From an uncultured bacterium (GTDB taxonomy: Bacteria; UBP4; UBA4092), in NCBI GenBank assembly GCA_963768165.1, contig CAVYHJ010000002.1, positions 195,283 to 259,282 on the forward strand: a stretch of 64,000 nucleotides of DNA, written 5' to 3'. The notes under the pieces are model-generated. The model worked only from the letters and a program-made list of their open reading frames with translations. It ran no database searches and was not told the origin of the DNA. Of the stretch, positions 25,580 through 61,149 are shown piece by piece; the first letter of the stretch is position 1; each line of letters opens with the position of its first letter. The position numbers and the translations under genes were made by a program.

Positions 25580-25596
25580 TTGTATAATCTCCTTTT

Positions 25597-25686: not shown

Positions 25687-25702
25687 CGTAGAAGAAAATA
25701 TG

Positions 25703-27739: not shown

Positions 27740-27806
27740 ATATTATCTCCTTAGAACCACCACCCCCTTCCCCCTCCTTAATTAAGGAGGGGGACTGAGG
27801 GAGTGA

Positions 27807-30716: not shown

Positions 30717-30729
30717 TTTTAGGACCTCC

Positions 30730-32793: not shown

Positions 32794-32811
32794 GACATCG
32801 TCATGACTCTA

Positions 32812-34560
32812 CTAAAAAGTTTTTCCTTGCAACATAAATAAATGTTCCAATACAGGTCCTAGTGTAAACGCCGGAAAATACGTTAAGGCACCCACAATGA
32901 ATATTACACAGACTAACATGACAACAAACAACCAACCAGTGGTAGGAAAAGTGGCTGTACTTGTAGGAACAATCTTTTTCTGTACTAGTGAACCGGCAAC
33001 AGCCAGTCCCGGTATTAAGGTGGCGAACCGACCTACTAGTATGGTGACTGATCCTGTGAGGTTATAAAATAAGGTGTTAGCGTTAAGACCCGCAAAAGCA
33101 GAACCATTATTACCACCAAAGGATAAATAGGCATAGAGTATTTCTGACCAGCCATGTGCTGAGGGATTATTTAAGCTGGATAATCCTGTCGGTGTAATAA
33201 TGGCAATCGCTGAAAATATTTTGAGTATGATAGGCGCTGCCAGAATTGCAACCACCGTCCAAATCATTTCATAAACTCCTAATTTTTTACCCAGATACTC
33301 AGGAGTTCGTCCTATCATCAACCCGGCTATGAACATGGTGGTAAATACATAAAACAAAACACCAACCGTTCCTATGCCGACACCGCCGAAAATTACTTCT
33401 CCGGTACCCATAAAGAACATATAAACCAAACCGGTGAGCGGGAGCATACTGTCATGCATGGAATTAATCGAACCATTGGCTGTTCCTGTTACCAATCCTC
33501 CCCACACAGCGGAGTTTATAATCCCACAGCGAGTTTCCTTGCCTTCCATATTCCCGCCCACAACGTGTAATTTAGCAAACAAAGGATTCCCTTGCGTTTC
33601 TGTATATACACAAATGATTAACCCAATCACTAAGAGAATCAACATGGAATAAAAGATGGATCGGCCCTGACGAACATCTTTGACCATATATCCAAAGGTA
33701 AAAACAGGTGCACTGACCAAAAGGATAATCGCCATCATTTCCAAAAACATAGTCAACCCGTTTGGATCTTCAAAAGGATGTGAGGAATTCGTGTTGAAGA
33801 AACCTCCGCCATTGGTACCCAACTGTTTAATAGAAATTTGTGAGGCTACAGGACCCATGGCAATGGTCTGAGACCCGCCTTCCAAAGTTTTCACAGTTAC
33901 ATAAGGATGTAAGTTTTGAATAACACCCTGGGATCCCAATATCAATCCTAAAACAATACTTAATGGAATTAACACGTAAAGAATCGACCGGGTCAAGTCC
34001 ACCCAATAGTTACCAATAAAATTGGTATCTTTGCGTATAAATCCCCGGGTCAGAGCAACCAATACTGCTAAAGCTATGGCAGGAGAGACAAAATTATGCA
34101 CAGTCATACCTAGCATTTGGGTAAGATAACTCATGGTGGTTTCTCCCCCATAAGCCTGCCAGTTGGTATTGGTGATAAAGGAGATAGCTGTATTTAATGC
34201 CAGGTCCCATTTCAACCCCGGCAATTTTTGTGGATTCAGAGGAAGATAACCCTGAACCAGTTGTAAGACAAACAAAGTTATCAAAAAGATAACATTTGAC
34301 CAAACAAATGCCCAAGCATAGGTTTTCCAATTCATCTCCTCATCTTCATTAATGAAACAAACCCGGTAGATTCCTTTTTCCAATGGCCGGAATACCGGGG
34401 AAAGAAATGTTCTTTTCCCTTCGTATACATGAGCCATGAATTTCCCTATTGGGATGGACAGGAGTAATGTAACGATTAAACCAATTGTGACTACAAGTAT
34501 ATCTATCATATTAATTATCCTTTCTTCAAAAGATGGTCTTTCATTAATCTCATTAATCAA
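32812..34560 (-). CDS. kdpA: K+-transporting ATPase subunit KdpA (operon 2)
   Basis: Paralog of 27807..29507; alternative start at 34509 (MIDILVV, GAAAGGA RBS) is plausible. Confidence 0.9.
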   Translation of the reverse strand: MINEINERPSFEERIINMIDILVVTIGLIVTLLLSIPIGKFMAHVYEGKRTFLSPVFRPLEKGIYRVCFINEDEEMNWKTYAWAFVWSNVIFLITLFVLQLVQGYLPLNPQKLPGLKWDLALNTAISFITNTNWQAYGGETTMSYLTQMLGMTVHNFVSPAIALAVLVALTRGFIRKDTNFIGNYWVDLTRSILYVLIPLSIVLGLILGSQGVIQNLHPYVTVKTLEGGSQTIAMGPVASQISIKQLGTNGGGFFNTNSSHPFEDPNGLTMFLEMMAIILLVSAPVFTFGYMVKDVRQGRSIFYSMLILLVIGLIICVYTETQGNPLFAKLHVVGGNMEGKETRCGIINSAVWGGLVTGTANGSINSMHDSMLPLTGLVYMFFMGTGEVIFGGVGIGTVGVLFYVFTTMFIAGLMIGRTPEYLGKKLGVYEMIWTVVAILAAPIILKIFSAIAIITPTGLSSLNNPSAHGWSEILYAYLSFGGNNGSAFAGLNANTLFYNLTGSVTILVGRFATLIPGLAVAGSLVQKKIVPTSTATFPTTGWLFVVMLVCVIFIVGALTYFPAFTLGPVLEHLFMLQGKTF

Positions 34561-35427: not shown

Positions 35428-35590
35428 TCAATAAAAAACCCACTCACTCTTCCACGCCTGCGAGGTTAGCTGACGGGCTCGGGTTGAAAAGTAACCCTAC
35501 ACCTTGCGGTGATTCGCCCCAACTTTCGGTTCCCCCGCCTTTTTCAAGCTCGGCGAACTTAAGTGGTACTATTAAAATTCTATGTTATTT
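35428..35590 (-). promoter_or_regulatory. Candidate c-di-AMP (ydaO/kimA-type) riboswitch leader, copy C
   Basis: Conserved core; internal hairpin CACC-GCAA-GGUG covaries with GCGC-GCAA-GCGC (D), CGC-GAAA-GCG (B) and CGCG-GAAA-CGCG (A). Confidence 0.6.
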
Positions 35591-37363: not shown

Positions 37364-37912
37364 TTAAAGTAAATATTTCATAGGATTCACAGGTACTCCA
37401 TTTAGCCGAATTTCAAAATGGACATGCGGTCCTGTGGCAAGTCCGGTACTGCCCACCAAGGCAATGACCTGTCCGCGTTCCACCCCTTGACCCACTTGGA
37501 CTAGAACACTGGAACAATGCCCATATAAAGTAATAAAATCATTGTCATGTTGGATAATGACGCATTTCCCTAAAAGCCCATGCCATCCGGCACCTACCAC
37601 ACGCCCGGATTGCGATGCGCAAATAATGGTTCCATGCTCTGCGGCAATATCTATTCCACTATGAAACCGGATTCCCCCCTCGATAGGATGATGGCGATAA
37701 CCAAACCCAGACGTTATAAGCCCATCTACCGGCCAGACAAAACCAAGTTTTTCATCAGGCACGGAACCGTTAAAATATTGATTGACATTCCTATTATTCA
37801 TCTCAGGTGCCTGCGCATAACTCCAATTGGCGATAATTCCAGGTATCACCAAAAGCAACATAATACCTGTCATCCGTTTTTTATAGAGTTGTTTCCATAA
37901 CCGTTTCATCAT
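37364..37912 (-). CDS. Secreted M23 family metallopeptidase
   Basis: HxxxD-type HSGIDIA and HVHFE motifs; start set at MMKRLW (AGGAG RBS, signal peptide) rather than the ORF-track start 38023. Confidence 0.8.
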   Translation of the reverse strand: MMKRLWKQLYKKRMTGIMLLLVIPGIIANWSYAQAPEMNNRNVNQYFNGSVPDEKLGFVWPVDGLITSGFGYRHHPIEGGIRFHSGIDIAAEHGTIICASQSGRVVGAGWHGLLGKCVIIQHDNDFITLYGHCSSVLVQVGQGVERGQVIALVGSTGLATGPHVHFEIRLNGVPVNPMKYLL

Positions 37913-38097
37913 TTTTCTCCTAACTTTTTGACGAGCAGAGCCGGACTGGTGGCAATCCGACCCTGCTCTAACCCCGCTCATACAATTCAAAATACGGGAT
38001 ATCTTTAAATCCTTAAAAAACACCTATAAGGATTATTTCCAATACATACTGTACAAAAAATGATTAAATTGGTTTAGGAAGTAAAATGGGAGGGTTA

Positions 38098-38261
38098 TAA
38101 ATAAAAAACCCACTCACTCTTCCACGCCTGCGAGGTTAGCTGACGGGCTCGGGTTGAAAAGTAACCCGGCGCTTGCGCGCTTCGCCCCTACTTCTTGGTT
38201 CCCCCGCCTCTTACGAGCTCGGCGAACTTAAGTGGTGCTAAGTTCTTGATTTAATTTTCTA
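38098..38261 (-). promoter_or_regulatory. Candidate c-di-AMP (ydaO/kimA-type) riboswitch leader, copy D
   Basis: Conserved core with GCGC-GCAA-GCGC hairpin; 3' tail GAGUGAGUGGGUUUUUUAU; M23 peptidase gene downstream. Confidence 0.6.
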
Positions 38262-46695: not shown

Positions 46696-48714
46696 TTATT
46701 GTAATTCCAGCAGTCCCTTTTTTGCCCCCGCATATTCCGGATTGAAAAACAAGACTCGATTGTAAGATTCTTTCGCCAGATCCTTTTTCCCCTGAGTTTG
46801 GTATAACAATCCCAATCGGTAATGGGAGGAAATATTTTCGGGTTCTAACTGTACCGACTCTTTCCATTCACTTTCTGCTTTCCCAAATTCTTTATTGGTG
46901 AAATAATAAATTCCCTGATAGTAATGGTAATCCGATAAACGCTCGAACGCCCATGCCCTCCAAAAATCTTTTTGGGAAATATCTGACGGCGTATACCGGT
47001 AAACATAATTTATTTTTGGCGGTAGATATGGATAAGGATGTTCAGGGACGGCATTTTTGACAGGTACACTTGTCACATGATAAAGCAACCCTTCCTGAGT
47101 TACTGATAACGACGGGTTAATTCGAAGATTATATTTCTCATAAAAATAACAGGGACGCTGTGATAGATTCTGTTTGAAAAATTGGAACATTTGCCAATCC
47201 ACAAACGTGAATGCCTGGTTGGGATTTTTGGGGACTTGAGAATTGTTGAAGGTGGGGATTTGTAATTTTGGATCATGGATTCTGTTTAACCCTTCATAAT
47301 ACCATCCCAGCGCCAGTGACGTTCGCGAAAGTACGGTGACATCCGCACGATAATGTTCCACTTGCTGCAAATACCAAACTGGGAATACATGTAAATCATC
47401 GTCACCGATAAATAAAGCCTTCGGTTCCATAGTATCCAAAATATCTTTTCCAAAATCATACGCGAGATAATAATTACGCTCATTATGTTTTAAGAATTGG
47501 GTTACAAAGCCCGTCAAAACAAAAAAAACGCTAATGGCATATGCTAGAAAATATCTATTGGGTTTGTTATTGATAATTGTATATCCAATTCTCGTAATCC
47601 CTATCCCCCCCCATATCCCATAAATTAAGTATGCAGGAATAAAAAAAACGTCCCGGGTTTCTAAAGAGAGTAGTTGAGTCATGGGATGATTATTGACAGC
47701 ACAGAAAAATAACCACACGACTATAGCAATCCCTCCCAATAGAATGGCGGAGGATTTATGATTCTGTCCAAGCCAAGATAACCCGAATAATGCGCATAAT
47801 CCCAAAATAATTCCGTAAATCAATCCGGAGATGGTTACGGATTGCCCGGTCAACAAAACCCATGCGGTCGTGCCCAACTGTTCTTCCAGCAAGCCCCATG
47901 ACCGTCTCCATTCAAACGGCGGGTAATCGCTTCGTAATAGAATTTCTCTGAATCCTTTCCATGTATCCGCTTTTCCCCATTCGATCATTCCCAAATGCGG
48001 TGTTACCAACGGCAGTAATAAATATACCGAAAATCCTAATAAAGCCAGGGAAATACCAATAAGTAAAGGTTTAAGTGAAAATGTATTTTTGAATTGCCCC
48101 TGCAATAACAAAAAAAGAATTACTACCGGAACATAAAGAACGGAGGTATGATGAATCCCCAGGCTGAACGACCACAGGAATACCCCCGCGTACCAATATC
48201 GCCGTTCCCGGGTCCGGGCGTAAAGCAATACAAATAAAATGATAAATGCCGTAAAGAACGCGCTCAACGGATGAACTTTTGCCACCAACGCCTGCGACCA
48301 AAAGGTCCCGGAAAAAGCAAATGTCAACGCACCGGATATGGCTCCGATGTGTGCCATTGTACTTGACTGTAAATCCTTTTCCGTTAAACAGTACCATTGC
48401 AAAAGAAGAAAAATAATGACATACGTTACGCCCACAGAAGCCGCCGCAAAGAATACCGATAATAAGTTCACTCTATAGCCGATATCCGTTCCAAAAGGCA
48501 GAAAAGTAAACAATTTCGCCAACAGAATATATGTCGGATAACCGGGTGGGTGCGCGAATCGCAAACCGTAGGATGCCGTGATAAAATCCCCGCTATCTCC
48601 GAAGGTCACGGTCGGTGCGACAGTATAAAGATACACCGCCCCGCTAATCAAAAAAGTCAAAATGAAATATGTAATAACTTTTTTTTGATTTACCATAAAT
48701 TTCTTGGAATTCAA
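46696..48714 (-). CDS. DUF2723-like polytopic membrane protein with C-terminal TPR repeats
   Basis: N-terminal YLYTVAPTVTFGDSGDF motif, many TM segments, C-terminal TPR-like helices. Confidence 0.6.
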   Translation of the reverse strand: MNSKKFMVNQKKVITYFILTFLISGAVYLYTVAPTVTFGDSGDFITASYGLRFAHPPGYPTYILLAKLFTFLPFGTDIGYRVNLLSVFFAAASVGVTYVIIFLLLQWYCLTEKDLQSSTMAHIGAISGALTFAFSGTFWSQALVAKVHPLSAFFTAFIILFVLLYARTRERRYWYAGVFLWSFSLGIHHTSVLYVPVVILFLLLQGQFKNTFSLKPLLIGISLALLGFSVYLLLPLVTPHLGMIEWGKADTWKGFREILLRSDYPPFEWRRSWGLLEEQLGTTAWVLLTGQSVTISGLIYGIILGLCALFGLSWLGQNHKSSAILLGGIAIVVWLFFCAVNNHPMTQLLSLETRDVFFIPAYLIYGIWGGIGITRIGYTIINNKPNRYFLAYAISVFFVLTGFVTQFLKHNERNYYLAYDFGKDILDTMEPKALFIGDDDLHVFPVWYLQQVEHYRADVTVLSRTSLALGWYYEGLNRIHDPKLQIPTFNNSQVPKNPNQAFTFVDWQMFQFFKQNLSQRPCYFYEKYNLRINPSLSVTQEGLLYHVTSVPVKNAVPEHPYPYLPPKINYVYRYTPSDISQKDFWRAWAFERLSDYHYYQGIYYFTNKEFGKAESEWKESVQLEPENISSHYRLGLLYQTQGKKDLAKESYNRVLFFNPEYAGAKKGLLELQ

Positions 48715-48849
48715 AAACAGTATATTGTATCACTGAATCCTAAACTATATTATCCTACAAATCGCCCATCACGAGTCCTATTCATTACAAGATGAAGCTA
48801 AAATCAGAGCGGACTCCAATACAAGATGTGGCGGAAATAGTGGGAGGGC

Positions 48850-48896
48850 GGGTAAGAAAATAAATAAAAATTAGGGGTGTCCAGACATGAACACCC
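48850..48896 (-). terminator. Intrinsic terminator after GH44-like gene copy 1
   Basis: Hairpin GGGTGT/ACACCC followed by U-rich tract on the minus-strand transcript. Confidence 0.5.
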
Positions 48897-48951
48897 TATG
48901 TACTCATTATTGTAAAATACTAGTAGAATGTCTTCTAATTATTACCATGGG

Positions 48952-50637
48952 TTAATATTTCTTCCAGTCAGCTATATCTACAGTCGATGGTGTCAGTATC
49001 AAATGGGTAATGGATAAGGGAGGAAGATTGTAAGTGAAAGAATTCCCGGTTACTGAAATGACGGATGGTCCAATAATGGAGGCTCCACTGTTTGAGGCTA
49101 CCGAATAGATGGTCGCACTATTGAACGTGGTTTGACTGCTAATTGTAAAATTTCCATTAATGGTCTGGGTCATATTTTTATTGAGGACCATGATATGCAA
49201 TTGTGATTGATTACTGGACATCACAGAGGCATAGATGGAGGTATCGGTAGTATCGTTCATCAACGCCTGCACATGGGTATCGCCAAAGGTGGAATTATGT
49301 CCGTCATAATTCCGGTACATCTTATAGGCTAGTGAATTATATTCATCCCCATTCCCTAAAGACCACAAACAACCCGCAAAGACACCATATTTCCCGAATA
49401 TTCCCAATACATCTGCTTCCGCTATTCCCCCTGTGATATCCCATCCTCCACCATAGTTATATTCTGAGATCGAAAGTTGGGTTCCGGGATTATAGATATT
49501 GATACAAGATTGAATCGCTGGAATATAAGGACAAAATGGTGCCCAGTAAGTTGTTTGACCTTGTCCTATCCAACTGGGTTGAATATAATTGCTATCCCAT
49601 AATTCACGGGGAGCTTGTAACCGGGCTAATTTATCTGCATTCGTGTCATTACCGGAATTGGTACTATTTATCCGATGAGTACCTGTGACCTCTGAATAGT
49701 CATGAATATCGAGCACATCCAGTAATCTAAATCCGTAAGCTGTAGAAGCCTGATACAGTTTATCCAAATAATAGCTAAGAAACCAGCCATAACTTCCTTG
49801 AACAGTGCTCCAATCGGGTGCATTTTGCAAAGTCAGAAAACCTTCAAAACCATAGTCTACCGGGCCGAACATCAGAGCCGTTGAATCCACCGACTTGATG
49901 GCGGAAGAACAGGCAATTGTCTTTTGGACTAATTCCGTGCATTGGGTTGCCGTGGGATGAATTTCCTTATGTGTGGAGGGCCATAGACTGGGTTCATTAT
50001 CCAAGTCGTAGAAGGGAACTCCACCAGTTACCTGGCTTAATGTACTGAAAGAGCTTAGGCTGCCAGCACCCGTCCCAAACCTGTTCACCAGATAGTTGAC
50101 CTGTTCATCCATATACACGGTAGAACCATTATCATACTTTGTCTCTTTCGGGTTCGTAGTAAAGGCGGAACCTTTATGAAATGCTATGGGATTAAATCTC
50201 GATGAAGAGAATGATGCCGTACTGACAACACCTGTATCATCTGCTGAAACATAACCGGCCATCTGGATTGTTAATAGGTTCTGTGCCGTGAATTTCGATC
50301 GGGTATCTAAGACATACACCGTATTCGTAGTACACGGAGACACCGTACCAATGGAAACGGAAACCCCGCCTGGTAGCATATAATCATCGCTTTCGAATAT
50401 ATAATCATTTCCTGCATTGGACCAATTCGTGACCCAGTTATATGCCGTCAAACGGTTTCCACCCATTCGAAACAAAGTAAAATTCTCCCCCCCTACCAAA
50501 TCCTGATTGGTTCCGTAAATATAGGGGCTGATTGGTTGCTGGTCGGTTTGGGGTGAAATCGTGTAGTTGACGTTTATTTGTGCGAAGGCGGAAATGGTTA
50601 GGTTGAGTAAGACGAGAAACACGAGCTTTTTTTGCAT
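48952..50637 (-). CDS. Secreted glycoside hydrolase, GH44-like (short paralog)
   Basis: Signal peptide; FRMGGNRLTAYNW, DLDNEPSLW and SEYNYGGGWDITGG motifs resemble GH44 from memory; 561 aa. Confidence 0.55.
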   Translation of the reverse strand: MQKKLVFLVLLNLTISAFAQINVNYTISPQTDQQPISPYIYGTNQDLVGGENFTLFRMGGNRLTAYNWVTNWSNAGNDYIFESDDYMLPGGVSVSIGTVSPCTTNTVYVLDTRSKFTAQNLLTIQMAGYVSADDTGVVSTASFSSSRFNPIAFHKGSAFTTNPKETKYDNGSTVYMDEQVNYLVNRFGTGAGSLSSFSTLSQVTGGVPFYDLDNEPSLWPSTHKEIHPTATQCTELVQKTIACSSAIKSVDSTALMFGPVDYGFEGFLTLQNAPDWSTVQGSYGWFLSYYLDKLYQASTAYGFRLLDVLDIHDYSEVTGTHRINSTNSGNDTNADKLARLQAPRELWDSNYIQPSWIGQGQTTYWAPFCPYIPAIQSCINIYNPGTQLSISEYNYGGGWDITGGIAEADVLGIFGKYGVFAGCLWSLGNGDEYNSLAYKMYRNYDGHNSTFGDTHVQALMNDTTDTSIYASVMSSNQSQLHIMVLNKNMTQTINGNFTISSQTTFNSATIYSVASNSGASIIGPSVISVTGNSFTYNLPPLSITHLILTPSTVDIADWKKY

Positions 50638-50860
50638 GATTACATACTCCTAATAAATTAAATAGTTCAATATGTCTACATTAGATAATAGGATAATAAA
50701 AATATATTTGCAATATGATAAATCTTTTCCAATATAAGACGTGGCGGAAATAGTGGAAGAGTGGGCAAGAGAATTAATAAAAAAGAGGATATTCTGAAAT
50801 GAACAACCCTATGTACTTATTATAAATTTCTAGTAAAATTTCCCTTGATTATTACCCCGA

Positions 50861-53287
50861 TTAATATTTTTCCCAGTCATCTATATCTACAGTCGATGGT
50901 GTCAGTATCAAATGGGTTATGGATAAGGGAGGGAGATTGTAGGTGAAAGAATTCCCGGTTACTGGAATAACGGACGGTCCGATGATGGATGTTCCACTGC
51001 TTGAGGCTACCGAATAAACGGTGGCACTATTGAACGTAGTGAGACTGCTAATCGTAAAATTTCCCTGGATGGACGATGTCCAATTTTTATTCAGCACCAT
51101 GATATGCAATTGCGATTGATTACTGGACATTACAGAGGCATAGATGGAACTATCTACCGTATCGTTCATCAACGCCTGCACATGAGTATCGCCAAAGGTG
51201 GAATTTTTACCGTCATAGTTCCGATACATTCGAAAAGCCAAGGAAATAAAATTATCTACCGATCCCCAATAACTTGCCGCATAAACCCCGTATTTCCCAC
51301 AAATTCCAAAAAAGTCCGCTTGGGCAATTCCCCCCGTAATATCCCAACTGCCGCCAAAACTATATTCCGAAAATGATGTTTTTGTACCGGGATAGTAATT
51401 ATAAATGGAAGTTTGAATGGTCGGAATAAGCGGTAAATAGGCATCGTAATATTGTCCAATCCAGCTATTCTCAACATAATTCTTATCCCATAATGTCCGC
51501 GGCGCTTGTAGCCGGACGGTCTTATCTGAATACGTATCGGAGTCGGAATTTGTCCCCGTAATGGAATTTCCCTCAGAGCCAGCAGCGGAAGAATAATAAT
51601 GCAGATCCAACACATCCAACAATCGTTCTCCTATAGTCACAGAAGCTTTATGCACTGTATCCAAATAGTACGATAAAAACCAATCCGGTGAATACCCGTT
51701 ATCTACATTGGCCCAATCCGGAGCACCTTGCAAAGTCAGATAACCTTCAAAACCATATTCCACCGGGCCAAACACCATGGCCGTCGAATCCACCGACTTG
51801 ATGGCAGAAGAACAGGCTATCGTCTTCTGAACCAGTTCCGTACAACAGGTTGCTGTGGGATGAATTTCCTTATGTGTTCCCGACCAAATCGAGGGTTCAT
51901 TATCCAAGTCATAGAAGGGAATTCCACCGGTTACCTGACTTAATGTACTGAAAGAGCTTAGACTGCTGCCACCCGTACCAAACCTATTCACCAGATAGTT
52001 CACTTGTTCATCCATATACACCGTAGCCCCATCATCATAACTTGTCTCTGTCGGTTTCGTGGTAAAGGCGGAACCTTTATGAAACGCTATCGGGTTAAAT
52101 CTCCACGATTGAAATGACGTCGTACTGACGTCCCCCGTATCATCTGCCGAAACATACCCAGCCATCTGGATCGTTAATAGGTTCTGTGCCGTGTAATGGG
52201 AGCGGGTATCTAAGACATACACCGTGTTGGTCGTACACGGATTCGCGTTAAAACTGCCAGAAACACCGCTGGGATACATACCATCATCGCTCTCAAAATA
52301 CCAGTCACTTCCTGCATTGGACCAATTAGTGACCCAGTTATAGGCGGACAAACGGTTTCCGCCCATGCGAAATAAAGTAAAGTTCTCTCCCCCTACCAAA
52401 GGCCCGAAATTAATTCCATAAATATAGGGACTAATGGCTTGTTGTTCCAATTGAGGGGAGATAGAGTAATTGATTGTGATTTGAGACAGGGTAATGGATA
52501 AAGCTTGGGTGGCTGTGGATCCCACTGAATCAGTTACTTTCACAGTAAAGTCATAAACACCTAATGAAGTCGGAGTTCCTGAAATAGTGCCTGAACTATA
52601 GAAAGTCAACCCGGGAGGTAATGTTCCCGTCGTTGTAGTCCAAGTATAGGGAGGAGTCCCATTCGCTGCTTGAAGGATCTGATTATAAGGAAAATTAATT
52701 GTTCCATTGGGTAAACTGGAGGTCGTGATAATTAAAGAAGGTGTTGTCGTAGATAGGGAGGGGCCAAAAATAACATTGTCAATTTTAAAAGTATAATTTC
52801 CGGTATTGGTCCCGATAAGAATTTGAAGGCCAATCCGATCCATCGGAGTTCCAATCCCGGTGTCATTTCCATATAATATGCTTGACTGCCAAGAGTTGGA
52901 TAAAGTCAACCATGATCCATTAGCCCAGGTCCATCCAGAACCTTGTTGCGAATATACTTGTGCATTGGGGGAAGATGCAGAATTGGTACATGCAACATAC
53001 ATACTCAAGATAGTATCAGTTCCCAATGTAAATGGTGGATTCGAGTAATAGACATCTATATTGGCACTGGTAGATGAAGTTTTGTTTACATAGACATAAA
53101 GACAGTCCTCACCGGAATATCCACCGGGTCCCCAACCGATAGTAAAAGAACCATAGTTACCACTTTCCCAGGCAGCTACCCAACCGGTGGTATTACTCGA
53201 TTGGGAAAAGAAATCTGAATATGATGCAATTACAGGGCTGAGAATGGTTAGGGAAAGTAGAAGAGTTGAAATAAGAAGTTTTTTCAT
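50861..53287 (-). CDS. Secreted GH44-like hydrolase with N-terminal extra and Ig-like domains
   Basis: 808 aa; N-terminal about 270 aa with PPYTWTTTTGTLPPGL...GTISGTP Ig-like segment, then the same catalytic region as 48952..50637. Confidence 0.55.
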   Translation of the reverse strand: MKKLLISTLLLSLTILSPVIASYSDFFSQSSNTTGWVAAWESGNYGSFTIGWGPGGYSGEDCLYVYVNKTSSTSANIDVYYSNPPFTLGTDTILSMYVACTNSASSPNAQVYSQQGSGWTWANGSWLTLSNSWQSSILYGNDTGIGTPMDRIGLQILIGTNTGNYTFKIDNVIFGPSLSTTTPSLIITTSSLPNGTINFPYNQILQAANGTPPYTWTTTTGTLPPGLTFYSSGTISGTPTSLGVYDFTVKVTDSVGSTATQALSITLSQITINYSISPQLEQQAISPYIYGINFGPLVGGENFTLFRMGGNRLSAYNWVTNWSNAGSDWYFESDDGMYPSGVSGSFNANPCTTNTVYVLDTRSHYTAQNLLTIQMAGYVSADDTGDVSTTSFQSWRFNPIAFHKGSAFTTKPTETSYDDGATVYMDEQVNYLVNRFGTGGSSLSSFSTLSQVTGGIPFYDLDNEPSIWSGTHKEIHPTATCCTELVQKTIACSSAIKSVDSTAMVFGPVEYGFEGYLTLQGAPDWANVDNGYSPDWFLSYYLDTVHKASVTIGERLLDVLDLHYYSSAAGSEGNSITGTNSDSDTYSDKTVRLQAPRTLWDKNYVENSWIGQYYDAYLPLIPTIQTSIYNYYPGTKTSFSEYSFGGSWDITGGIAQADFFGICGKYGVYAASYWGSVDNFISLAFRMYRNYDGKNSTFGDTHVQALMNDTVDSSIYASVMSSNQSQLHIMVLNKNWTSSIQGNFTISSLTTFNSATVYSVASSSGTSIIGPSVIPVTGNSFTYNLPPLSITHLILTPSTVDIDDWEKY

Positions 53288-53394
53288 CGGAAGGACTATC
53301 CTTTCAAATAAATAATTTATGATACGTTAAATTTACCTCAATCGGTGAGGTCATGTCAATGGATCTTAACCAATAAAAACGCGATAGAAATAGT

Positions 53395-53437
53395 GGAAGA
53401 ATAAATAAAAAAAGGAGTGTTCTGACATGAACACCCC
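53395..53437 (-). terminator. Intrinsic terminator after GH44-like gene copy 3
   Basis: Hairpin GGAGTGTTC-TGACAT-GAACACCCC followed by U-run on the minus-strand transcript. Confidence 0.5.
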
Positions 53438-53478
53438 TATATACTCATTATTATAAAATTCTAGTAGAATGTCTCTAG

Positions 53479-55908
53479 TTAATCTTTCTTCCAGTCAGGT
53501 ACATTAAGATTTACAGGCATCAATATAAAATGGGTAATGGATAAGGGAGGGAGATTGTAGATGAAAGAATTCCCGGTCACTGGAATAACAGATGGCCCGA
53601 TGATGGATGTTCCACTGGTTGAGACTATCGAATAAACGGTTGCAGTATCGAAAGTGTATAGACTGCTAATCGTAAAATTTCCCTGGATGGACTGAGTCCA
53701 ATTTTTATTCAACACCATGATATGTAATTCCTGATTACTCGACATCACAGAGGCATAGATGGAGGTGTCTGTGGTATCATCCATCAATGCCTGGACATGA
53801 GTATCCCCAAAAGTGGAATTTTTCCCGTCATAATTCCGATACATTTTATAGGCCAAGGAAGTATACTTGTCTCCCTGACCCAAGGACCAATAGCACGCCG
53901 CATAAACCCCATATTTCCCATAAATTCCTAAAGCATCCGCTTGCGCTATCCCACCCGTAATATCCCAACCGCCGCCAAAGCTGTATTCCGTAAATGAGTT
54001 TTTTGTACCGGGATAGTAATTATTGATGGAAGTTTGGATGGTCGGAATAAGCGGCAGATATTGGTCATTCCATTGTGCAATCCAGCTTGGTTCAATATAA
54101 TTCTTATCCCATAATGTCCGCGGTGCTTGTAGCCGAACTTGTTTATCACTCAATGTATCACTGGTAGGCGTTGTCCCCGTAATGGAATTTCCTTCAGAAC
54201 CAGTAGGGGAAGAATAATAATGAAGATCCAACACATCCAACAATCGTTCTCCAAAAGTCACAGAGGCTTGTTTCACAGTGTCCAAATAGTACGATAAAAA
54301 CCAGTTCGGTGAATATCCGGTGCTCACACTGGCCCAATCCGGTGCACCTTGCAAAGTCAGATAACCTTCAAAACCATATTCCACCGGACCGAACACCAAA
54401 GCCGTTGAATCTACCGACTTGATGGCAGAAGAACAGGCAATCGTCTTTTGAACTAATTCCGTACAACAAGTTGCTGTGGGATGAATTTCCTTATGTGTTC
54501 CCGACCAAATCGAGGGTTCATTATCCAAGTCATAGAAGGGAATTCCACCGGTTACCTGACTTAATGTACTGAAAGAGCTTAGACTGCTGCCACCCGTACC
54601 AAACCTATTCACCAGATAGTTCACTTGTTCATCCATATACACCGTAGCCCCATCATCATAACTTGTCTCTGTCGGTTTCGTGGTAAAGGCGGAACCTTTA
54701 TGAAACGCTATGGGATTAAATCTCCACGATTGAAATGACGTCGTACTGACGTCCCCCGTATCATCTGCCGAAACATACCCAGCCATCTGGATCGTTAATA
54801 GGTTCTGTGCCGTGAACTGGGAGCGGGTATTTAAGACATACACCGTATTGGTCGTACACGGAGACACCGTACCAATGGAAACGGAAACCCCGCCTGGTAA
54901 CATACCATCATCGCTCTCGAAATACCAATCATTTCCTGCATTGGACCAATTCGTGACCCAGTTATAGGCGGATAAACGGTTTCCGCCCATTCGAAATAAA
55001 GTAAAGTTCTCACCCCCCACCAAAGTCTGATTAGTTCCATAAATATAAGGACTAATGGCTTGTTGCTCTAATTGAGGGGAAATGGTGTAATTGACTGTGA
55101 TTTGAGTCAGGGTAATGGATAAAGCCTGGGTGGCTGTGGAGGCTACTGAGTCGGTTACTCTCACAGTAAAGTTATAAATACCTAATGAAGTCGGAGTTCC
55201 TGAAATAGTGCCTGAACTATAGAAATTCAATCCGGGAGGTAAAGTTCCTGCCGTGGTTGTCCAGGTATAAGGAGGTGTTCCATTGGCTGCTTGCAATACC
55301 TGGCTATAAGAATAATTAATCGTTGCATTGGGTAAACTGGAAGTTGTAATCACTAAGGGCGGTACTGTTGTGGATAAAGATGGGCCAAAAATAACATTAT
55401 CAATTTTAAAAGTATAATTTCCGGTATTGGTTCCGATAAGAATTTGAAGGCCAATCCGATCCATCGGAGTCCCACTTCCGGTGTCATTTCTATATAATAT
55501 GCTTGACTGCCAAGAGTTGGATAAAGTCAACCATGATCCATTAGCCCATGTCCATCCAGAACCTTGTTGCGAATATACTTGTGCATTGGGGGAAGATGCA
55601 GAATTGGTACATGCTACATACATATTTAAAACGGTATCGGTTCCTAAAGTAAAGGCTGGATTCGAGTAATAGACATCTATATTGGCACTGGAGGATGAGG
55701 TTTTGTTTACATAGACATAGAGACAATCCTCTCCGGAATATCCCCCTAGACCCCAACCAACAGTGATGGTACCATAAGGACCCCCTTCCCATGCAGCACT
55801 CCAACCAACGGTATCACTCGATTGGGAAAAGATAGTTGAATAAGAAGCAAATACAGGACTGAAAATTATTATGGTAAGAAGAAGAGTTGGAATAAGAAGT
55901 TTTTTCAT
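53479..55908 (-). CDS. Secreted GH44-like hydrolase with N-terminal extra and Ig-like domains (paralog)
   Basis: Start set at MKKLLIPTLLL (same RBS context as copy 2); nucleotide-level similarity to 50861..53287. Confidence 0.55.
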   Translation of the reverse strand: MKKLLIPTLLLTIIIFSPVFASYSTIFSQSSDTVGWSAAWEGGPYGTITVGWGLGGYSGEDCLYVYVNKTSSSSANIDVYYSNPAFTLGTDTVLNMYVACTNSASSPNAQVYSQQGSGWTWANGSWLTLSNSWQSSILYRNDTGSGTPMDRIGLQILIGTNTGNYTFKIDNVIFGPSLSTTVPPLVITTSSLPNATINYSYSQVLQAANGTPPYTWTTTAGTLPPGLNFYSSGTISGTPTSLGIYNFTVRVTDSVASTATQALSITLTQITVNYTISPQLEQQAISPYIYGTNQTLVGGENFTLFRMGGNRLSAYNWVTNWSNAGNDWYFESDDGMLPGGVSVSIGTVSPCTTNTVYVLNTRSQFTAQNLLTIQMAGYVSADDTGDVSTTSFQSWRFNPIAFHKGSAFTTKPTETSYDDGATVYMDEQVNYLVNRFGTGGSSLSSFSTLSQVTGGIPFYDLDNEPSIWSGTHKEIHPTATCCTELVQKTIACSSAIKSVDSTALVFGPVEYGFEGYLTLQGAPDWASVSTGYSPNWFLSYYLDTVKQASVTFGERLLDVLDLHYYSSPTGSEGNSITGTTPTSDTLSDKQVRLQAPRTLWDKNYIEPSWIAQWNDQYLPLIPTIQTSINNYYPGTKNSFTEYSFGGGWDITGGIAQADALGIYGKYGVYAACYWSLGQGDKYTSLAYKMYRNYDGKNSTFGDTHVQALMDDTTDTSIYASVMSSNQELHIMVLNKNWTQSIQGNFTISSLYTFDTATVYSIVSTSGTSIIGPSVIPVTGNSFIYNLPPLSITHFILMPVNLNVPDWKKD

Positions 55909-55997
55909 CGGAAGGACTATCCTTTCAAATAAAAATATATATGATACATTAACTATATTTACCACAATCGGTGAGGCTATGTCAATGTATAATAATC

Positions 55998-57429
55998 AGG
56001 AGTTTCCCCATTTTTTAATCGAAATCAAATTGAAGGAACAACTGATTGGGTTCCAAGAAAGGTTTTTGGGATTGGGGAGTATATTTCCAACGGGTATTAA
56101 AGAAGACCCGAAAGATGCCATCGGCCAAGGCATATTGATGGAAAGCAGGAATTTGAAAGAAACGTTTGGCCCGGGTATAAATTTTACGAAGAAGTACCGC
56201 AAGTCGAAGAGTTCCACCAAGGAAGACACTCAGGAAATAGAAGACGGCAAAGAGTAAGACGACAGTATTTTTCAGAGAGCGATACGTGCGTACCCGTACA
56301 TCCTCGAGATGATATTCTTTTTTAAGAAACCGGATACTTTCTTCCACTTTCCAACGAGTCAGATAAATCTCCAAAATACGAAGAGGGGAAAAGGTTACAT
56401 TGGTTAAGAGGATGAGCGGCTCGGATCCAAATCCTTTCACGACCACTAAAAACAAATCTTCCCCTGATAGCGTAGGAAAATGAACTTTGGTTTTCCCCAG
56501 AGATAATAATCGTTTTTCCGTATACCCTTGTTGATCGACCTCCACCGTATACTCCTGGGGACAAGCAAGCTCTTGGGCCATCTGTCGAGCCAGTTGTTCA
56601 ACCCGATTCGGAGTAATCAATCCACGGTCTCCTTTGAGACGAACCACAAATCGCAAGTCCCTCGCCAACCAGTCTCGAATCAGGTTTTTTCGGTCTCCCC
56701 CACGGTCCATGACCCAAATCCCTTTACCCTTCAAGGAGCTATTGACTTGATCCATCGCTTTGAATATTTGATGGTTCTCGCTGATGAAATCATGCGCCTT
56801 CGCCGAATATAATTCACTGTAGAGGGGATACAAATTCTTTTGGTCTACCCGGGCACCCACCACTTCTAACACCCAATATCCCCAGGTCTTCTGTTTCTCT
56901 ACCCCATCCCAAACCCAATCTAAGAAATCCATCTTCTGGGCATAGGGTTTGGAGATATCCGTCAAATCAATCGCTAATACCGTATCCGGATCTATTCGAT
57001 CTCGCACATGCTCCAGCATCTGATCCAAGACCTGTTGGGATAACTCTGGATCTTGCAGATTTCGAGACAACCGATTCTCCGTCTTGATCAATTTGATCTC
57101 CTCATGTAAATTACGGGCCACTTCCGATAACTTGATATCCCGCGAGGCTTGAATCCCAAAGAGCATCTGATGAAGAAATCTCCGTTGTGGTTTGGGGAGT
57201 CCTTTCCCAAGGACCTCCATAAAGTGATCTAATTGAGTATTGATTTTTTCCAGTAATCTGCTATCGTTATTCATAGGAACCTCCGATTTTGGGGAATAAG
57301 ATTCCCCATTTTTTTCTCCAAGGCTATTTTATCCCCGCTCAGAGGTTCCTTACCACTTCCTATTTTACATCCCTTATTGATATCTCGCAGGTTATATTAT
57401 TCAATCCCTAAATTCTGGGGAAACTCCTC
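55998..57429 (-). mobile_element. IS4-like insertion sequence with 8-bp target-site duplication
   Basis: Terminal inverted repeats CAGGAGTTTCCCCA (55998-56011) and TGGGGAAACTCCTC (57416-57429); flanking direct repeats ATAATAAT at 55990-55997 and 57430-57437; one transposase ORF. Confidence 0.7.
56015..57274 (-). CDS. DDE transposase (IS4-family-like)
   Basis: 419 aa; candidate DDE residues in AIDLTDI, VMDRGGD and YLTRWKVEESIRFLKKE. Confidence 0.75.
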   Translation of the reverse strand: MNNDSRLLEKINTQLDHFMEVLGKGLPKPQRRFLHQMLFGIQASRDIKLSEVARNLHEEIKLIKTENRLSRNLQDPELSQQVLDQMLEHVRDRIDPDTVLAIDLTDISKPYAQKMDFLDWVWDGVEKQKTWGYWVLEVVGARVDQKNLYPLYSELYSAKAHDFISENHQIFKAMDQVNSSLKGKGIWVMDRGGDRKNLIRDWLARDLRFVVRLKGDRGLITPNRVEQLARQMAQELACPQEYTVEVDQQGYTEKRLLSLGKTKVHFPTLSGEDLFLVVVKGFGSEPLILLTNVTFSPLRILEIYLTRWKVEESIRFLKKEYHLEDVRVRTYRSLKNTVVLLFAVFYFLSVFLGGTLRLAVLLRKIYTRAKRFFQIPAFHQYALADGIFRVFFNTRWKYTPQSQKPFLEPNQLFLQFDFD

Positions 57430-57803
57430 ATAATAATTGATTCAAGATGGCTTTATTTTCAATCATGTTATTTTAAAAATTGTAAAGAATAATTTCAAAT
57501 TAACAATCATTTCTATTATTGGTTAAATAAGTGTAAAGTTAGCTACACACTGTCTCCGTATTAACTCCACTTTGTCTCCCAATGAACCGTATAGGTACTT
57601 TTCAGATGCTTTTACTAAAATAAATTTATGAAACACTTTATTTTTTTAATTTTTAGGGCTTTTAGAAGGAGAGTTGTCTACACTTTAGCGACTAACCTAC
57701 TAATCATTTAAGGCACGTAGATTGAGCTCCATAAAATTTTCTTGCATGGTCGGTATCCAGTGACACCCGTACCGAAATAGGGAGATCTTTGATTCGTGAA
57801 AAA

Positions 57804-58643
57804 TTAACCTTTCAGCCCGGAGGTGGATAAAGACTTCACAATATGCTCTTGAAAAACAAAGAAGATAATCAAGACAGGAATTATAGCCAGTGCAGCTCCA
57901 GCCATCTGGATATTTTCCGACCCGGTATATCTTCCCTGGAGGAGAGCTATTCCCAAGGGAAGAGTATATTTATCTTCATCCAATAGAAAAATTAAAGGAC
58001 CTACAAAATTATTCCAGGAACCCAAGAAAGTGAGGATGGCTAAAGTAGCAATCAAGGCTTTCGATAATGGAACAATTATTAAACTATAGGTATAGAAATC
58101 CGGACAGCCATCAATTTTGGCGGCATCTGTTAAATCATTCGGGATCGTCTCAATAAACTGTTTCGCAAGAAACACACCAAAGGTACCTGCCAGACTGGGG
58201 ACTATTAAAGGAAGGTAGGTATTTAACCAATGGAAATCCCGCATGAGTATAAATCCCGGCACCAATAAAACACTGCCCGGAATCATCATGGTCGCCAGCA
58301 TCGCCAGGAATATTTTATCTTTACCCGGGAATTGGTGTTTGGCAAAGGTATACCCCGCGAGAGAACAAAAGAAAATGGTTCCCAAGGTAACACTCCCGGA
58401 GACAACTACACTATTCCACATGAAACGTAGGTACGGCATACCGACCATCAGTTCCCGGTAGGGAATTAAAGTTGGAAAGTGTTTGAACCATAAACTAATA
58501 GGAATAGCGATGACATCCTCCCCCTTTTTAAAAGAAGTAATCACCATAAAATAGAACGGGATGACCATCACAATTCCAAACAAAGCCATCAAGAAATAAA
58601 TTAAAAAGCGAAAGAAGGATTTCTTGATTCGATAAGTATTCAT
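57804..58643 (-). CDS. Carbohydrate ABC transporter permease (MalG-like)
   Basis: Six-TM permease with EAA-loop-like AAKIDGCPDF..IIVPLSKAL. Confidence 0.85.
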   Translation of the reverse strand: MNTYRIKKSFFRFLIYFLMALFGIVMVIPFYFMVITSFKKGEDVIAIPISLWFKHFPTLIPYRELMVGMPYLRFMWNSVVVSGSVTLGTIFFCSLAGYTFAKHQFPGKDKIFLAMLATMMIPGSVLLVPGFILMRDFHWLNTYLPLIVPSLAGTFGVFLAKQFIETIPNDLTDAAKIDGCPDFYTYSLIIVPLSKALIATLAILTFLGSWNNFVGPLIFLLDEDKYTLPLGIALLQGRYTGSENIQMAGAALAIIPVLIIFFVFQEHIVKSLSTSGLKG

Positions 58644-58647
58644 TGCA

Positions 58648-61149
58648 TTAATCTACTTTCTTACCAAACAACCATTTAAAATTGATATACGTTAAAACAA
58701 AAATGATAGCAAATAAAATATACGCTATGGCGGAAGATTCACCCATTTTAAAATCCTCGAATCCTTTACGATAGAGATAACACACCATGGTCATCCCCGA
58801 ATCCGCCGGACCAAACTTGGAACCCGCTTCTCCGGCACCACCACCCAAAACATAAATCTGGTCAAAGACCTGGAGCGCGCCGATTGTGCCGGTAACGGTA
58901 AGAAACAAAATCTGCGGGCGCAGCATAGAGAGCGTTATCTGCCAGAAATTCTGAAGGGCATTCGCCCCATCAATTGCAGCCGCCTCATAGAGTTCATTGG
59001 GAATATTCTGCAATCCTGCCAAATAAATAAGAACCGTGAATGCCAATCCCTGCCAGACGCTCATGGCAATAACAGCATAGAGGAAGGTCTGGGAGTTATG
59101 AAGAAAATTAACCGGGTCTCGAATTAATCTTAAATTTAATAACAATGCATTAATCCAGCCATATTTAGCTCCCAGAAAGAGAACTGTCCAAATTAATGCC
59201 ACAGATACTACAGAAGTGACCAATGGAGAAAAATAGACAAACTTGAACATTCTATCCGGTTTAAGTTTCTTGTCCAACCCAATCGCAAATAAGACGGCCA
59301 TAAACATTTGTAATGGAATGACTATCAGACAAAATACCAGTGTTCTGCCGAAACTGGACCATAAATCATTTTCAGACAGGAACATTTTTAACTTACCCGC
59401 CCAGGACAGATTGGCATTGGCAGAATCCGTAAAGATCTGGGAATTAGCAAACAATATTCCTTTAAAGTTTTTAAGACCCACCCAGTCCGCTGTCGACAAG
59501 GGCAAGACAGGATTATATGCTGTAAACGCTATATAAATGGATACACACATAGGGATAAATAGAAAAATTAATAAACTTAAAACAGTCGGGGTAATGTACA
59601 GATAAGAATACCAGTTTTTACGAGCCTGAGAATTCAACAGAATGAATCCTAAACAACAAAGGATGAGAATACCTGACGCGATTTTGGAATAAAAAAGAAC
59701 ATCTTTTTTCTTTTCAAGAGCAGGCAACCGTTCCACGATATTCGTATAATATTTATTAAAATCTTTGAGTCGTTCTGCCAACGCCTTATTCGCAAGGGGT
59801 GTAATGCGGTCAATTTCCTCGTCGCATAAATTACTTTCATAATTCAAGAATTTCTTATATTCATCAGGATATTTCCCCTGAGCGAACGCCGCATTGATTT
59901 TAAAAAGAGTAGTTTTTTCCTTACCGGCCACACTGATGAGATAATCCCGGATATCATTACGAAGTCTTGAAAAAGAATTATCAAGGAATCTATCCGATTC
60001 AGGACTGCCCACAATATAGGGCCATGACCGGGTACAATACATAATCTGTTTTAAAGATTCCTGATCGTCTTTCGGGATGCCAGGTAAAGGCTCATCCCAA
60101 AATTCTTTTAAAGGAGACAAGAAAAGGTTCCGGCCTTCTCCCCGGTTATTCATATTATCGTTAAAAATATATTTTTGAACATCCTTCCGGTAATAGTATT
60201 GAATCCACTGCATGGCTTCTTTGGGATGTTTAGACTTCCGAAAAATGACAAAACTGGTACCGCCAAGAATCGAAGCCGATTGGCCGTTATCTGCTGCCGG
60301 CATGGGAACGATGCCCCATTTCCCTTTTAGAAAAGGAGCCCGTTTTTCAATTTCCAGGTAATACCATATCCCATCAATCATCATGGGGGCCGCGAATCCC
60401 TTTTCATCCGAGACAAATAATTCCAACCCTTTATCCAACTCAATATTACCGTTATTCCATAACCCTATTGCAAACTTAAATCCTTCTCGAAACCGGGGGT
60501 CCTGCCAGTTGACTTTGGTACCATCGGTAGACATGGTTTCCGTCCCCAATGGCCAAACAAACTGGCCAATCGCCCAGCCTGAATCTCTTGTAAAAGAAAC
60601 ACTATACTGGTATTCATTGGCTTCCAGAACCCGGATGACTTCTTTAAGTTCCGACCAGGTATTGGGTGGTTTAATCCCTAGTTTGGCAAAAATATCTTTC
60701 CGGTAGTAAATACCCAAGGAGGTCATTCCCTGCGGAATACCATAAAGATGATTTTGAAAATAAAAAATCCTCCAAGGACCTTCAAAAGACTTTTGTTTGA
60801 GATCTTCGATTTCCTTTGGGAACATAGCTTGCAGGTCAACCAATCCCCCGATTGAACCATAATCTCCCGGTCCTCCCAAATTAGTCGTCGCCAAATCCGG
60901 CGGGTCTCCAGCGGCCATCGCAGTAAGATATTTGGTATAGAATTGCCCCCAGGAGATGGGTTGAACAATTACATGGATTCCGGTTTCTCTTTCAAAGTTT
61001 CCGGCAATTACCCGGTACATCCGGCCATCATACGCATCTCCGACATTCCAAAAACGCAAGGTAACAGCCAAGGAAGAATTTGGTAACAACCCAAAAGTGA
61101 TAAGTATGATTGATGAAACAGTTAGTAATTTAATATATCGCCAAGGCAT
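58648..61149 (-). CDS. Fusion of extracellular solute-binding protein and ABC permease (MalF-like)
   Basis: N-terminal signal peptide and about 450-aa family-1 SBP-like region, then six-TM permease with EAA loop (EAAAIDGANALQ); 833 aa. Confidence 0.75.
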   Translation of the reverse strand: MPWRYIKLLTVSSIILITFGLLPNSSLAVTLRFWNVGDAYDGRMYRVIAGNFERETGIHVIVQPISWGQFYTKYLTAMAAGDPPDLATTNLGGPGDYGSIGGLVDLQAMFPKEIEDLKQKSFEGPWRIFYFQNHLYGIPQGMTSLGIYYRKDIFAKLGIKPPNTWSELKEVIRVLEANEYQYSVSFTRDSGWAIGQFVWPLGTETMSTDGTKVNWQDPRFREGFKFAIGLWNNGNIELDKGLELFVSDEKGFAAPMMIDGIWYYLEIEKRAPFLKGKWGIVPMPAADNGQSASILGGTSFVIFRKSKHPKEAMQWIQYYYRKDVQKYIFNDNMNNRGEGRNLFLSPLKEFWDEPLPGIPKDDQESLKQIMYCTRSWPYIVGSPESDRFLDNSFSRLRNDIRDYLISVAGKEKTTLFKINAAFAQGKYPDEYKKFLNYESNLCDEEIDRITPLANKALAERLKDFNKYYTNIVERLPALEKKKDVLFYSKIASGILILCCLGFILLNSQARKNWYSYLYITPTVLSLLIFLFIPMCVSIYIAFTAYNPVLPLSTADWVGLKNFKGILFANSQIFTDSANANLSWAGKLKMFLSENDLWSSFGRTLVFCLIVIPLQMFMAVLFAIGLDKKLKPDRMFKFVYFSPLVTSVVSVALIWTVLFLGAKYGWINALLLNLRLIRDPVNFLHNSQTFLYAVIAMSVWQGLAFTVLIYLAGLQNIPNELYEAAAIDGANALQNFWQITLSMLRPQILFLTVTGTIGALQVFDQIYVLGGGAGEAGSKFGPADSGMTMVCYLYRKGFEDFKMGESSAIAYILFAIIFVLTYINFKWLFGKKVD

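Follow-up and report, generated by a model that had tools for sequence, protein, structure and literature searches.

The 64,000-nucleotide stretch of DNA analysed here (the window; positions 195,283 to 259,282 of the forward strand of contig CAVYHJ010000002.1, assembly GCA_963768165.1, numbered below from its first letter) comes from an uncultured bacterium of the GTDB lineage UBP4 (UBA4092). It harbors three tandem genes of glycoside hydrolase family 44 (GH44), hereafter c1, c2 and c3, together with an insertion sequence (IS) located upstream of c3. The locus as a whole is very probably best explained as an old, lineage-specific GH44 array, which has undergone gene conversion and has recently received an IS sparing the core promoter of c3. 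The minus strand of the 48952-57437 region, which is bounded by the stop codon of c1 and by the outermost base of the distal target duplication, as correctly delimited in the initial annotation, carries four long open reading frames (ORFs) transcribed in the order transposase, c3, c2 and c1. The c1 gene (48952-50637) encodes a short form of 561 amino acids, in which a signal peptide directly precedes the GH44 catalytic TIM barrel and its C-terminal beta-sandwich. The c2 gene (50861-53287) encodes a long form of 808 amino acids comprising, in that order, a signal peptide, a beta-sandwich resembling a carbohydrate-binding module (CBM), a He_PIG immunoglobulin (Ig) domain and the GH44 region. The c3 gene (53479-55908), the first gene of the array in transcription order, encodes another long form of 809 amino acids counted from the ATG at 55908, which we take as the start codon (the mechanical ORF call extends to an upstream GTG at 55965). 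The three ORFs, as read in the sequence, are intact and arranged head to tail as had been announced. Their products are 75-77% (c1 versus c2 or c3) and about 86% (c2 versus c3) identical, the corresponding nucleotide identities being 76-77% and 87%, and the c2 protein is identical to a database protein (P0001) recorded on a 1.26-Mb contig.

The assignment of the three proteins to GH44 is supported by the following lines of evidence. First, they all match the Pfam GH44 domain (PF12891) with 176-180 bits, for a cut-off of 25.1 (E-values of 1.6e-51, 7.6e-53 and 1.2e-52 for c1, c2 and c3, respectively). Second, residues 22-551 of c1 align with the solved GH44 structures 2yih, 2ykk, 2e0p, 2eex and 3ik2 (phmmer, E 3e-129 to 4e-125); the best match is Paenibacillus polymyxa PpXG44 (E 3e-129), followed by the Clostridium enzymes CtCel44A and CaCel44A (about 1e-125), with an identity of about 50%. 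Over residues 27-551 of c1, the matches to 2ykk/2yih have an E-value of about 1e-128. Third, it is known that Glu-187 of PpXG44 is the acid/base residue, in the NEP motif of clan GH-A, and Glu-358 the nucleophile, the E358S mutant being PDB 2YIH (PMC3190823). In c1, Glu215 (DLDNEPS) aligns with the acid/base residue and Glu392 (SEYNYGG) with the nucleophile, both being invariant in c1-c3, and the mutant chain 2YIH has a serine where c1 and the wild-type chain have a glutamate. Fourth, the equivalents of the substrate-contacting Asn-48 and Asp-65 of PpXG44 are also invariant in c1-c3. The description of these proteins as GH44-like is thus upheld by the Pfam hits, the full-length structural matches and the agreement of both catalytic glutamates, and the catalytic-domain motifs, when examined for a departure from GH44, were found to match it. 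The announced secretion was borne out as well, all three proteins starting with homologous Sec-type signal peptides, which we read by eye as MKKLLISTLLLSLTILSPVIA/SYS in c2 and MQKKLVFLVLLNLTISAFA/QIN in c1. The ratio of nonsynonymous to synonymous substitution rates (dN/dS, Nei-Gojobori) is 0.19-0.23 for every pair of copies, which points to purifying selection on all three.

Together, these features suggest that c1-c3 are functional genes for secreted, retaining endo-beta-1,4-glucanases/xyloglucanases (a predicted activity), whose extracellular targets would probably be soluble beta-glucan or xyloglucan. The likeness to PpXG44 (2YKK/2YIH/3ZQ9) and to Cel44A/CelJ (2E0P, 2EEX) extends, at about 50% identity, across the TIM barrel and the beta-sandwich, and PpXG44 shares with c1-c3 the NEP acid/base glutamate, the nucleophile, Asn-48 and Asp-65. 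Unlike those systems, the present one consists of three tandem paralogs rather than one gene, and it has neither a dockerin nor a second catalytic domain. A C-terminal tail, (D/G)W(K/E/Q)(K/R)Y(Y/H), lies past the end of the solved GH44 beta-sandwich in c1-c3 (minus strand, ~48955-48975, ~50864-50884 and ~53482-53502, respectively) and is conserved in the relatives P0003, P0121 and P0004; it might serve as a sorting or anchoring signal.

The long forms differ from c1 by about 250 additional residues between the signal peptide and the catalytic domain, slightly fewer than the 270 that had been announced along with an Ig-like segment, which is indeed found as a He_PIG domain. In c2 (minus strand), the CBM-like beta-sandwich spans 52763-53224 (about residues 22-175; c3 equivalent ~55381-55845) and the He_PIG domain 52487-52732 (residues 186-267; c3 equivalent ~55105-55362), the latter scoring above the gathering threshold of Pfam PF05345 (E-values of 1e-12 for c2 and 6.5e-13 for c3). 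The first 155 residues or so give a sub-threshold match (18.6 bits for a cut-off of 27) to PF21253 (Mann_GBD_bact, a mannanase galactose-binding-domain-like family). An exhaustive HMMER search of 1.84 billion representative proteins yielded 11 relatives of the CBM-like module at E<=1e-3; it precedes He_PIG and GH16 in one of them and a clan GH-A-like barrel in another, and in a third case the match is to the PF21253 repeats of a GH5 protein. The predicted fold is a beta-jelly-roll matching known CBMs, among them CBM4, CBM22, CBM27 and CBM28. The nearest known kinds are PF21253 itself, to which the C-terminal domain of the Bacillus sp. JAMB-602 mannanase (PDB 1WKY) belongs, and the CBM superfamily of the beta-sandwich type (CBM4/22/27/28/44); the c2/c3 module differs from PF21253 in falling below its gathering score and in being extremely rare. 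Like the long forms, Clostridium thermocellum CelJ joins GH44 to Ig/PKD-like and beta-sandwich CBM-like domains, but its accessory module is C-terminal and ordered PKD-CBM44, whereas that of c2 and c3 is N-terminal, ordered CBM-like-Ig and devoid of a sequence-level match to CBM44. From the fold prediction and the modularity, we propose that the N-terminal module is a divergent beta-sandwich carbohydrate-binding module followed by an Ig spacer, carbohydrate binding being its predicted function. The module would target two of the enzymes to their substrate, c1 being a bare catalytic unit.

Turning to the history of the array, the number of synonymous substitutions per site (dS, Nei-Gojobori) is 0.38 for c2/c3 and 0.85 for c1 versus c2 or c3, which indicates that the duplications are old. 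Superimposed on this divergence is a tract of 345 near-identical nucleotides (c2 51849-52193; c3 partner 54470-54814; minus strand), which contains exact runs of 242 and 99 nucleotides against a background identity of 86% (permutation p<0.0005), and where dS is 0.04 for c2/c3, as compared with 0.50 in the remaining catalytic region, while c1 stays at about 0.5 from both copies in the tract. Judged by these runs, gene conversion between c2 and c3 is recent and clear. The mosaic similarity includes c1, which is nearer to c3 in columns 331-360 and nearer to c2 in columns 781-810. The initial annotation had described the locus as actively rearranging; this holds for the IS (see below) and for the gene-conversion tract, but not for the duplications, in view of their age.

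The relatives of the array speak to the same question. A sister genome (990-kb contig) encodes two long forms (P0003 and P0121) and one short form (P0030), and its two long forms are in tandem as well: in a short-read contig assembled independently, about 170 bp separate the C-terminus of P0003 (..GWEKYY*) from the start codon of P0121 downstream. A scan of species-representative genomes with c2 (the set did not include the source genome) returned only distant GH44 loci from Fibrobacterota, Bacteroidota and Verrucomicrobiota (35-43% identity), all single-copy, with no second GH44 within 10 kb. We propose that old tandem duplications gave rise to the array and that gene conversion among the copies later homogenised it in part. 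We lean, with some reserve, towards an ancestral array homogenised within each genome, in preference to repeated independent duplication. According to this less probable alternative, the three copies result from lineage-specific duplications of a single ancestral gene, and the N-terminal module was secondarily lost in c1. It agrees with the neighbor-joining tree, in which c1, c2 and c3 group with P0004 (a short form found in another sample) in a single clade (bootstrap 1.0), whose sister, among the three paralogs of the relative, is P0003 only. It is opposed by the identical inventory of the sister genome (two long forms and one short form, the long ones in tandem), by the demonstrable conversion tracts and by the participation of c1 in the mosaic similarity.

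Each GH44 gene looks like a sigma-70-type transcription unit of its own, monocistronic in appearance. The putative promoters, all on the minus strand, are TTGACA-N18-TAAATA for c3 (55956-55985), which matches the consensus and is homologous to the c2 promoter; TTGACA-N18-TAAATT for c2 (53330-53359; 10/12 in the promoter scan); and TTGCAA-N17-TATTAT for c1 (50685-50713; from the same scan), which is not homologous to the other two. The c2 and c3 genes have about 80 bp of upstream sequence in common, which begins almost exactly at the TTGACA box and includes an identical GAAAGGA ribosome-binding region before the start codon; for these putative promoters, such conservation is a better argument than consensus matches. 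The repeat unit starts at the -35 box and extends about 130 bp beyond the stop codon. In agreement with the conserved 3' terminator regions that had been announced, these ~130 bp are alike behind all three stop codons and hold a GC-rich hairpin that leads into a T-run. Strong behind c3 (53413-53438; 10-bp stem; -14.9 kcal/mol, z -4.8) and c1 (48875-48896; 9-bp stem; -13.7 kcal/mol), the hairpin is decayed behind c2 (50786-50809; -6.6 kcal/mol, z -1.8), where it was recognised by alignment and not called by the scan (all on the minus strand). Between each stop codon and terminator, the 3' untranslated region also holds a near-palindrome, ATTCTA-C-TAGAAT (minus strand, ~48915-48935, ~50830-50850 and ~53455-53475), which is best kept behind c3. 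A search of Rfam at a permissive threshold over 48600-57900 gave no matches.

The IS (55997-57429, minus strand, 1433 bp) presents the hallmarks of a transposed element. Its terminal inverted repeats, GAGGAGTTTCCCCA (55997-56010) and CAGGAGTTTCCCCA (57416-57429), match at 13 of 14 positions, and it is bordered by identical copies of an AT-rich 8-bp target, ATAATAAT on the plus strand (ATTATTAT on the gene strand), read in the sequence at 55989-55996 (promoter-proximal) and 57430-57437 (distal), as had been reported. A single, unframeshifted DDE transposase gene (56015-57274, minus strand, 419 amino acids; DDE_Tnp_1, PF01609, E 9e-13) lies inside. The residues D103, D190 and E311 are invariant in 13 relatives, and so is the complete Y-(2)-R-(3)-E-(6)-K motif (Y304, R307, E311 and K318; YLTRWKVEESIRFLK). 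The IS4 family proper is characterized by a complete YREK motif and a duplication of about 7-13 bp, whereas IS701, ISH3 and IS1634 have an incomplete motif and a duplication of 4-6 bp (De Palmenaer et al. 2008, PMC2266710). The present element is therefore IS4-like, as had been suggested, on account of its single DDE ORF, complete YREK and 8-bp duplication; yet all NCBIfam models score far below their cut-offs, with IS701 (56.8 bits for 150) marginally ahead of IS4 (50.9 for 152) and of IS1634 (48.4 for 100). Within the IS4 family (PMC2266710), the nearest subgroups by features are IS4Sa, IS50 and ISPepr1. The likeness also includes the size (1.43 kb), the AT-rich target and 5'-CA at one end; the differences are the left end, which starts with GA and not CA, and the absence of a curated NCBIfam model claiming the transposase. 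Indeed, the right end begins with CAGGAG and the left end with GAGGAG, while the relatives begin with CAG or CTG (IS4-family ends are 5'-CA or 5'-CT).

The boundaries of the element are supported by independent sequences. A Logan short-read contig (L005; run ERR11523656) matches 55997-57419 with 100% identity and breaks off precisely at 55997, in support of both the right boundary and a multicopy element, and a 100% identical transposase is recorded on further large contig(s); no second copy of the IS was found within the window. Another 419-amino-acid ORF (16065-17324), considered as a second IS, proved to be an unrelated SBBP beta-propeller protein. Two related elements (L009 and L011; transposases 57-64% identical) have the same layout, with a left end about 155 bp before the start codon and ends reading C(A/T)GGAGTTTnCCCA, L011 being flanked by the 8-bp duplication GACCTTTT. 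Metagenomes contain more than 2000 relatives of the transposase, most of them on contigs about 1.4 kb long, and those few that have a name come from Candidatus Omnitrophota metagenome-assembled genomes (MAGs); the closest annotated plasmid transposases are about 27% identical or less. Within the IS, shortly before the ribosome-binding site of the transposase, an A-run precedes a hairpin, TGGGGAAT-CTT-ATTCCCCA (57290-57308), which repeats the AAAAAATGGGGAA motif of the right IS end and whose stem is kept by compensatory changes (TGGGTAAAC..GTTTACCCA in L009 and TGGGAAAA..TTTTCCCA in L011); it may operate as a translational or transposase-binding control element. The genome of the window and the sister genome (about 60% identical, with its own GH44 array) occur in the same sample (L012, L006 and L008; run ERR11523654), and the two populations might have exchanged the IS.

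As to the consequence of the insertion for c3, the promoter-proximal target copy ends at 55989 and the TTGACA box of c3 occupies 55985-55980. The insertion thus precedes the -35 box by 3 bp and the ATG by 88 bp (about 90 bp in the initial annotation, which also noted that the transposase gene has the same orientation as the GH44 genes), leaving the core promoter, the ribosome-binding site and the ORF untouched. The IS and the duplication together push all upstream sequence, including the end of an ATP-binding cassette (ABC) transporter operon, 1441 bp away. A terminator scan of the stretch from 57803 to 57438, behind the permease gene, detected none, and no terminator-like hairpin separates the stop codon of the transposase gene from the end of the IS (-5.4 kcal/mol, z 0.06). 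In the 366 bp that separate the IS from the permease gene, no credible small ORF was found. This spacer does hold an imperfect 22-bp tandem direct repeat (57539-57582; on the gene strand, two times GGAGACAnnGTGnAGnTAA), which the insertion has moved to 1.5 kb from the promoter and which may be either a binding place for a regulator or a spot where strains vary; a short-read contig (L008) breaks off precisely at 57539, 110 bp short of the IS. A hybrid promoter created by the IS was also considered (55989-56018, minus strand), with TTAAAA in the IS end (overlapping the transposase stop codon), N18 and TATTAT in the target duplication, and was rejected, its 9/12 score being no better than chance in such an AT-rich region.

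From these observations we propose that the IS recently transposed into an AT-rich 8-bp target immediately before the -35 box of c3, which heads the array. In sigma-70 promoters, the stretch preceding the -35 box usually harbors UP elements and class I activator sites, and the insertion would have placed IS-end sequence where such a site would sit. The transposase gene, with the same orientation and no terminator behind it, could read through into c3. The suggestion that the IS alters the expression of c3 is plausible but unproven. The likeliest net effect would be a modest change in the regulation of c3 and not its inactivation, modulation appearing more likely than silencing. An unlikely alternative is that the IS functionally cripples c3 by cutting it off from upstream activators or from read-through of the ABC operon, such that only c2 and c1 are normally expressed. 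It draws on the position of the insertion, 3 bp from the -35 box at the usual place of UP elements and class I activator sites; on the lack of a detected terminator from the permease stop codon (57804) to the insertion point, which makes an ancestral read-through possible; on the remoteness of the 22-bp repeat as a possible regulator site; and on the -10 element of c3, which is weaker than that of c2. It is countered by the untouched -35, -10 and ribosome-binding elements; by the intact ORF, which is under the same purifying selection as the other copies, though the insertion may be too recent to have left traces; and by the transposase gene itself, which could replace the lost read-through.

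The transporter genes upstream of the IS bear on the use of the GH44 products. A fused solute-binding-protein/permease gene (58648-61149, minus strand, 833 amino acids; Pfam SBP_bac_1 and BPD_transp_1) and a second permease gene (57804-58643, minus strand; BPD_transp_1) encode an importer of the CUT1 sugar type, with weak NCBIfam matches to MalF, MalG, UgpA and UgpE. The fusion also occurs in MAGs at 65-68% identity and, at about 40%, in Armatimonadota (Fimbriimonas, Chthonomonadaceae). The importer genes are preceded by genes for LemA and a zinc-ribbon protein; downstream of the array are found a TMEM260-like glycosyltransferase/tetratricopeptide repeat (TPR) protein gene, pilin-like genes and a sigma-54 two-component pair. 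A Pfam scan of the neighboring ORFs revealed no other carbohydrate-active enzyme, regulator or ATPase in the cluster, and no TonB-dependent receptor (SusC) or SusD domain. As in Gram-positive-type polysaccharide-utilisation loci, secreted endo-glycanases lie directly downstream of a solute-binding-protein/permease set on the same strand. The present cluster differs from such loci in that it has no regulator, ATPase or exo-glycosidase, that the adjacency is absent in a related locus (L007) and that each GH44 gene appears to have its own promoter and terminator; it differs from the Bacteroidota type in having no SusC/SusD pair. The term polysaccharide-utilisation locus, used in the initial annotation, is therefore only partly sustained: the adjoining CUT1 ABC importer favors it, but the missing regulator and accessory glycosidase and the lack of linkage in L007 do not, and we regard it as a reasonable, loosely justified guess and not a demonstrated unit. 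The importer may take up the released oligosaccharides.

It is quite improbable that the GH44 enzymes process the exopolysaccharide of the cell itself, as the GH44 protein EpsB does, rather than forage on plant or algal glucans. Although the sole NCBIfam match of these proteins is the exopolysaccharide protein EpsB (NF041873) and the TMEM260-like glycosyltransferase/TPR gene comes after the array, the EpsB score (171-185 bits) does not reach the equivalog cut-off of 1250, the enzymes share about 50% of their residues with the xyloglucanase PpXG44 along the full length, the CBM-like module and the adjoining sugar importer suit foraging better, and the neighborhood has no polysaccharide export or polymerase genes. 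Last, an assembly artefact behind the array or the IS junction is scarcely credible: the short-read assemblies of the same samples do break up the region (L008 stops at 57539 and the IS assembles alone), but the copies differ by 13-24% in nucleotides and in domain architecture, so that the array is not an artefact of identical repeats, collapsed or expanded, and the perfect target duplication with family-typical ends and the GH44 proteins recorded on the 1.26-Mb contig speak for true structures.

Several observations weigh against the proposed reading of an old, converted GH44 array with a recent IS that spares the promoter of c3. The promoters and the regulation of c3 are predicted from sequence; promoter-like matches in the region number 25, as compared with 24.7 in shuffled sequence; and the -10 hexamer of c3 (TAAATA) fails the scanner criterion at its last base, so c3 might already be dependent on other signals. 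An IS-free allele, whose junction would read ...GAATCAATTATTAT joined directly to ACATTGACA..., was searched for in the JGI metagenomes with a 26-nt empty-site probe, which gave no match. For the N-terminal module, the structure model is of moderate confidence only (pLDDT 70, from a four-sequence alignment), the PF21253 match is below the cut-off, and no described CBM family claims the module by sequence. As for the function, the substrate may be cellulose, xyloglucan or another beta-glucan, no regulator, beta-glucosidase or alpha-xylosidase is found nearby, and in L007, whose transporter is 65% identical, the same transporter pair occurs without GH44 and is followed by unrelated genes.

A more far-reaching set of proposals is, taken jointly, rather doubtful: that the module founds an undescribed CBM family, in a small uncultivated lineage, shuffled among GH44, GH16 and clan GH-A-like enzymes; that ongoing gene conversion keeps the three-gene array similar; that the short and long forms represent a division of labor between free and substrate-targeted enzyme; and that the IS belongs to an uncurated IS4-family subgroup typical of Omnitrophota-like bacteria.

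Elsewhere in the window, four c-di-AMP (ydaO-type) riboswitches (11090-11216, 29750-29873, 35440-35565 and 38110-38234; all on the minus strand, 92-101 bits) occur within 27 kb, upstream of an amino-acid permease gene (8663-10996), two kdp operons and an M23 peptidase gene (37364-38023). Amino-acid permeases, kdp operons and M23 peptidases are classical targets of c-di-AMP riboswitches, and their density here is unusual. The two complete kdpA-kdpB-kdpC operons (25013-29507 and 30141-34560, minus strand) stand in tandem, each behind its own c-di-AMP riboswitch, and are followed by a kdpD-like sensor gene (23023-25002); the pair is another tandem duplication in the same genome. Two adjoining genes encode ankyrin-repeat proteins (14196-14894 and 14977-15831, minus strand), and the L007 locus also has an ankyrin-repeat gene; such genes are unusual in free-living bacteria and are often a sign of host-cell interaction. 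A low-GC island (18001-20100; 0.34 as compared with about 0.42) contains two ORFs (18563-19549 and 19506-20090) without Pfam match. No rRNA or tRNA was found in the 64 kb.

On the whole, the description in the initial annotation is confirmed and its interpretation is essentially right. The locus is composed of ordinary, well-known kinds, namely GH44 enzymes, an IS4-type element, tandem paralogs with gene conversion and a beta-sandwich CBM-like module, so that the main value of the analysis lies in a correct annotation, and current understanding is not challenged. Only two parts might repay further work, namely the rare CBM-like module and the uncurated IS group, which add modestly to the catalogues of enzymes and mobile elements. 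The locus offers natural examples of paralogs maintained with and without a targeting module, of concerted evolution by gene conversion within a tandem array and of an IS landing immediately upstream of an intact promoter. For the biology of this uncultivated small-genome bacterium, the three secreted, predicted GH44 endoglucanases/xyloglucanases point to foraging on beta-glucan or xyloglucan.

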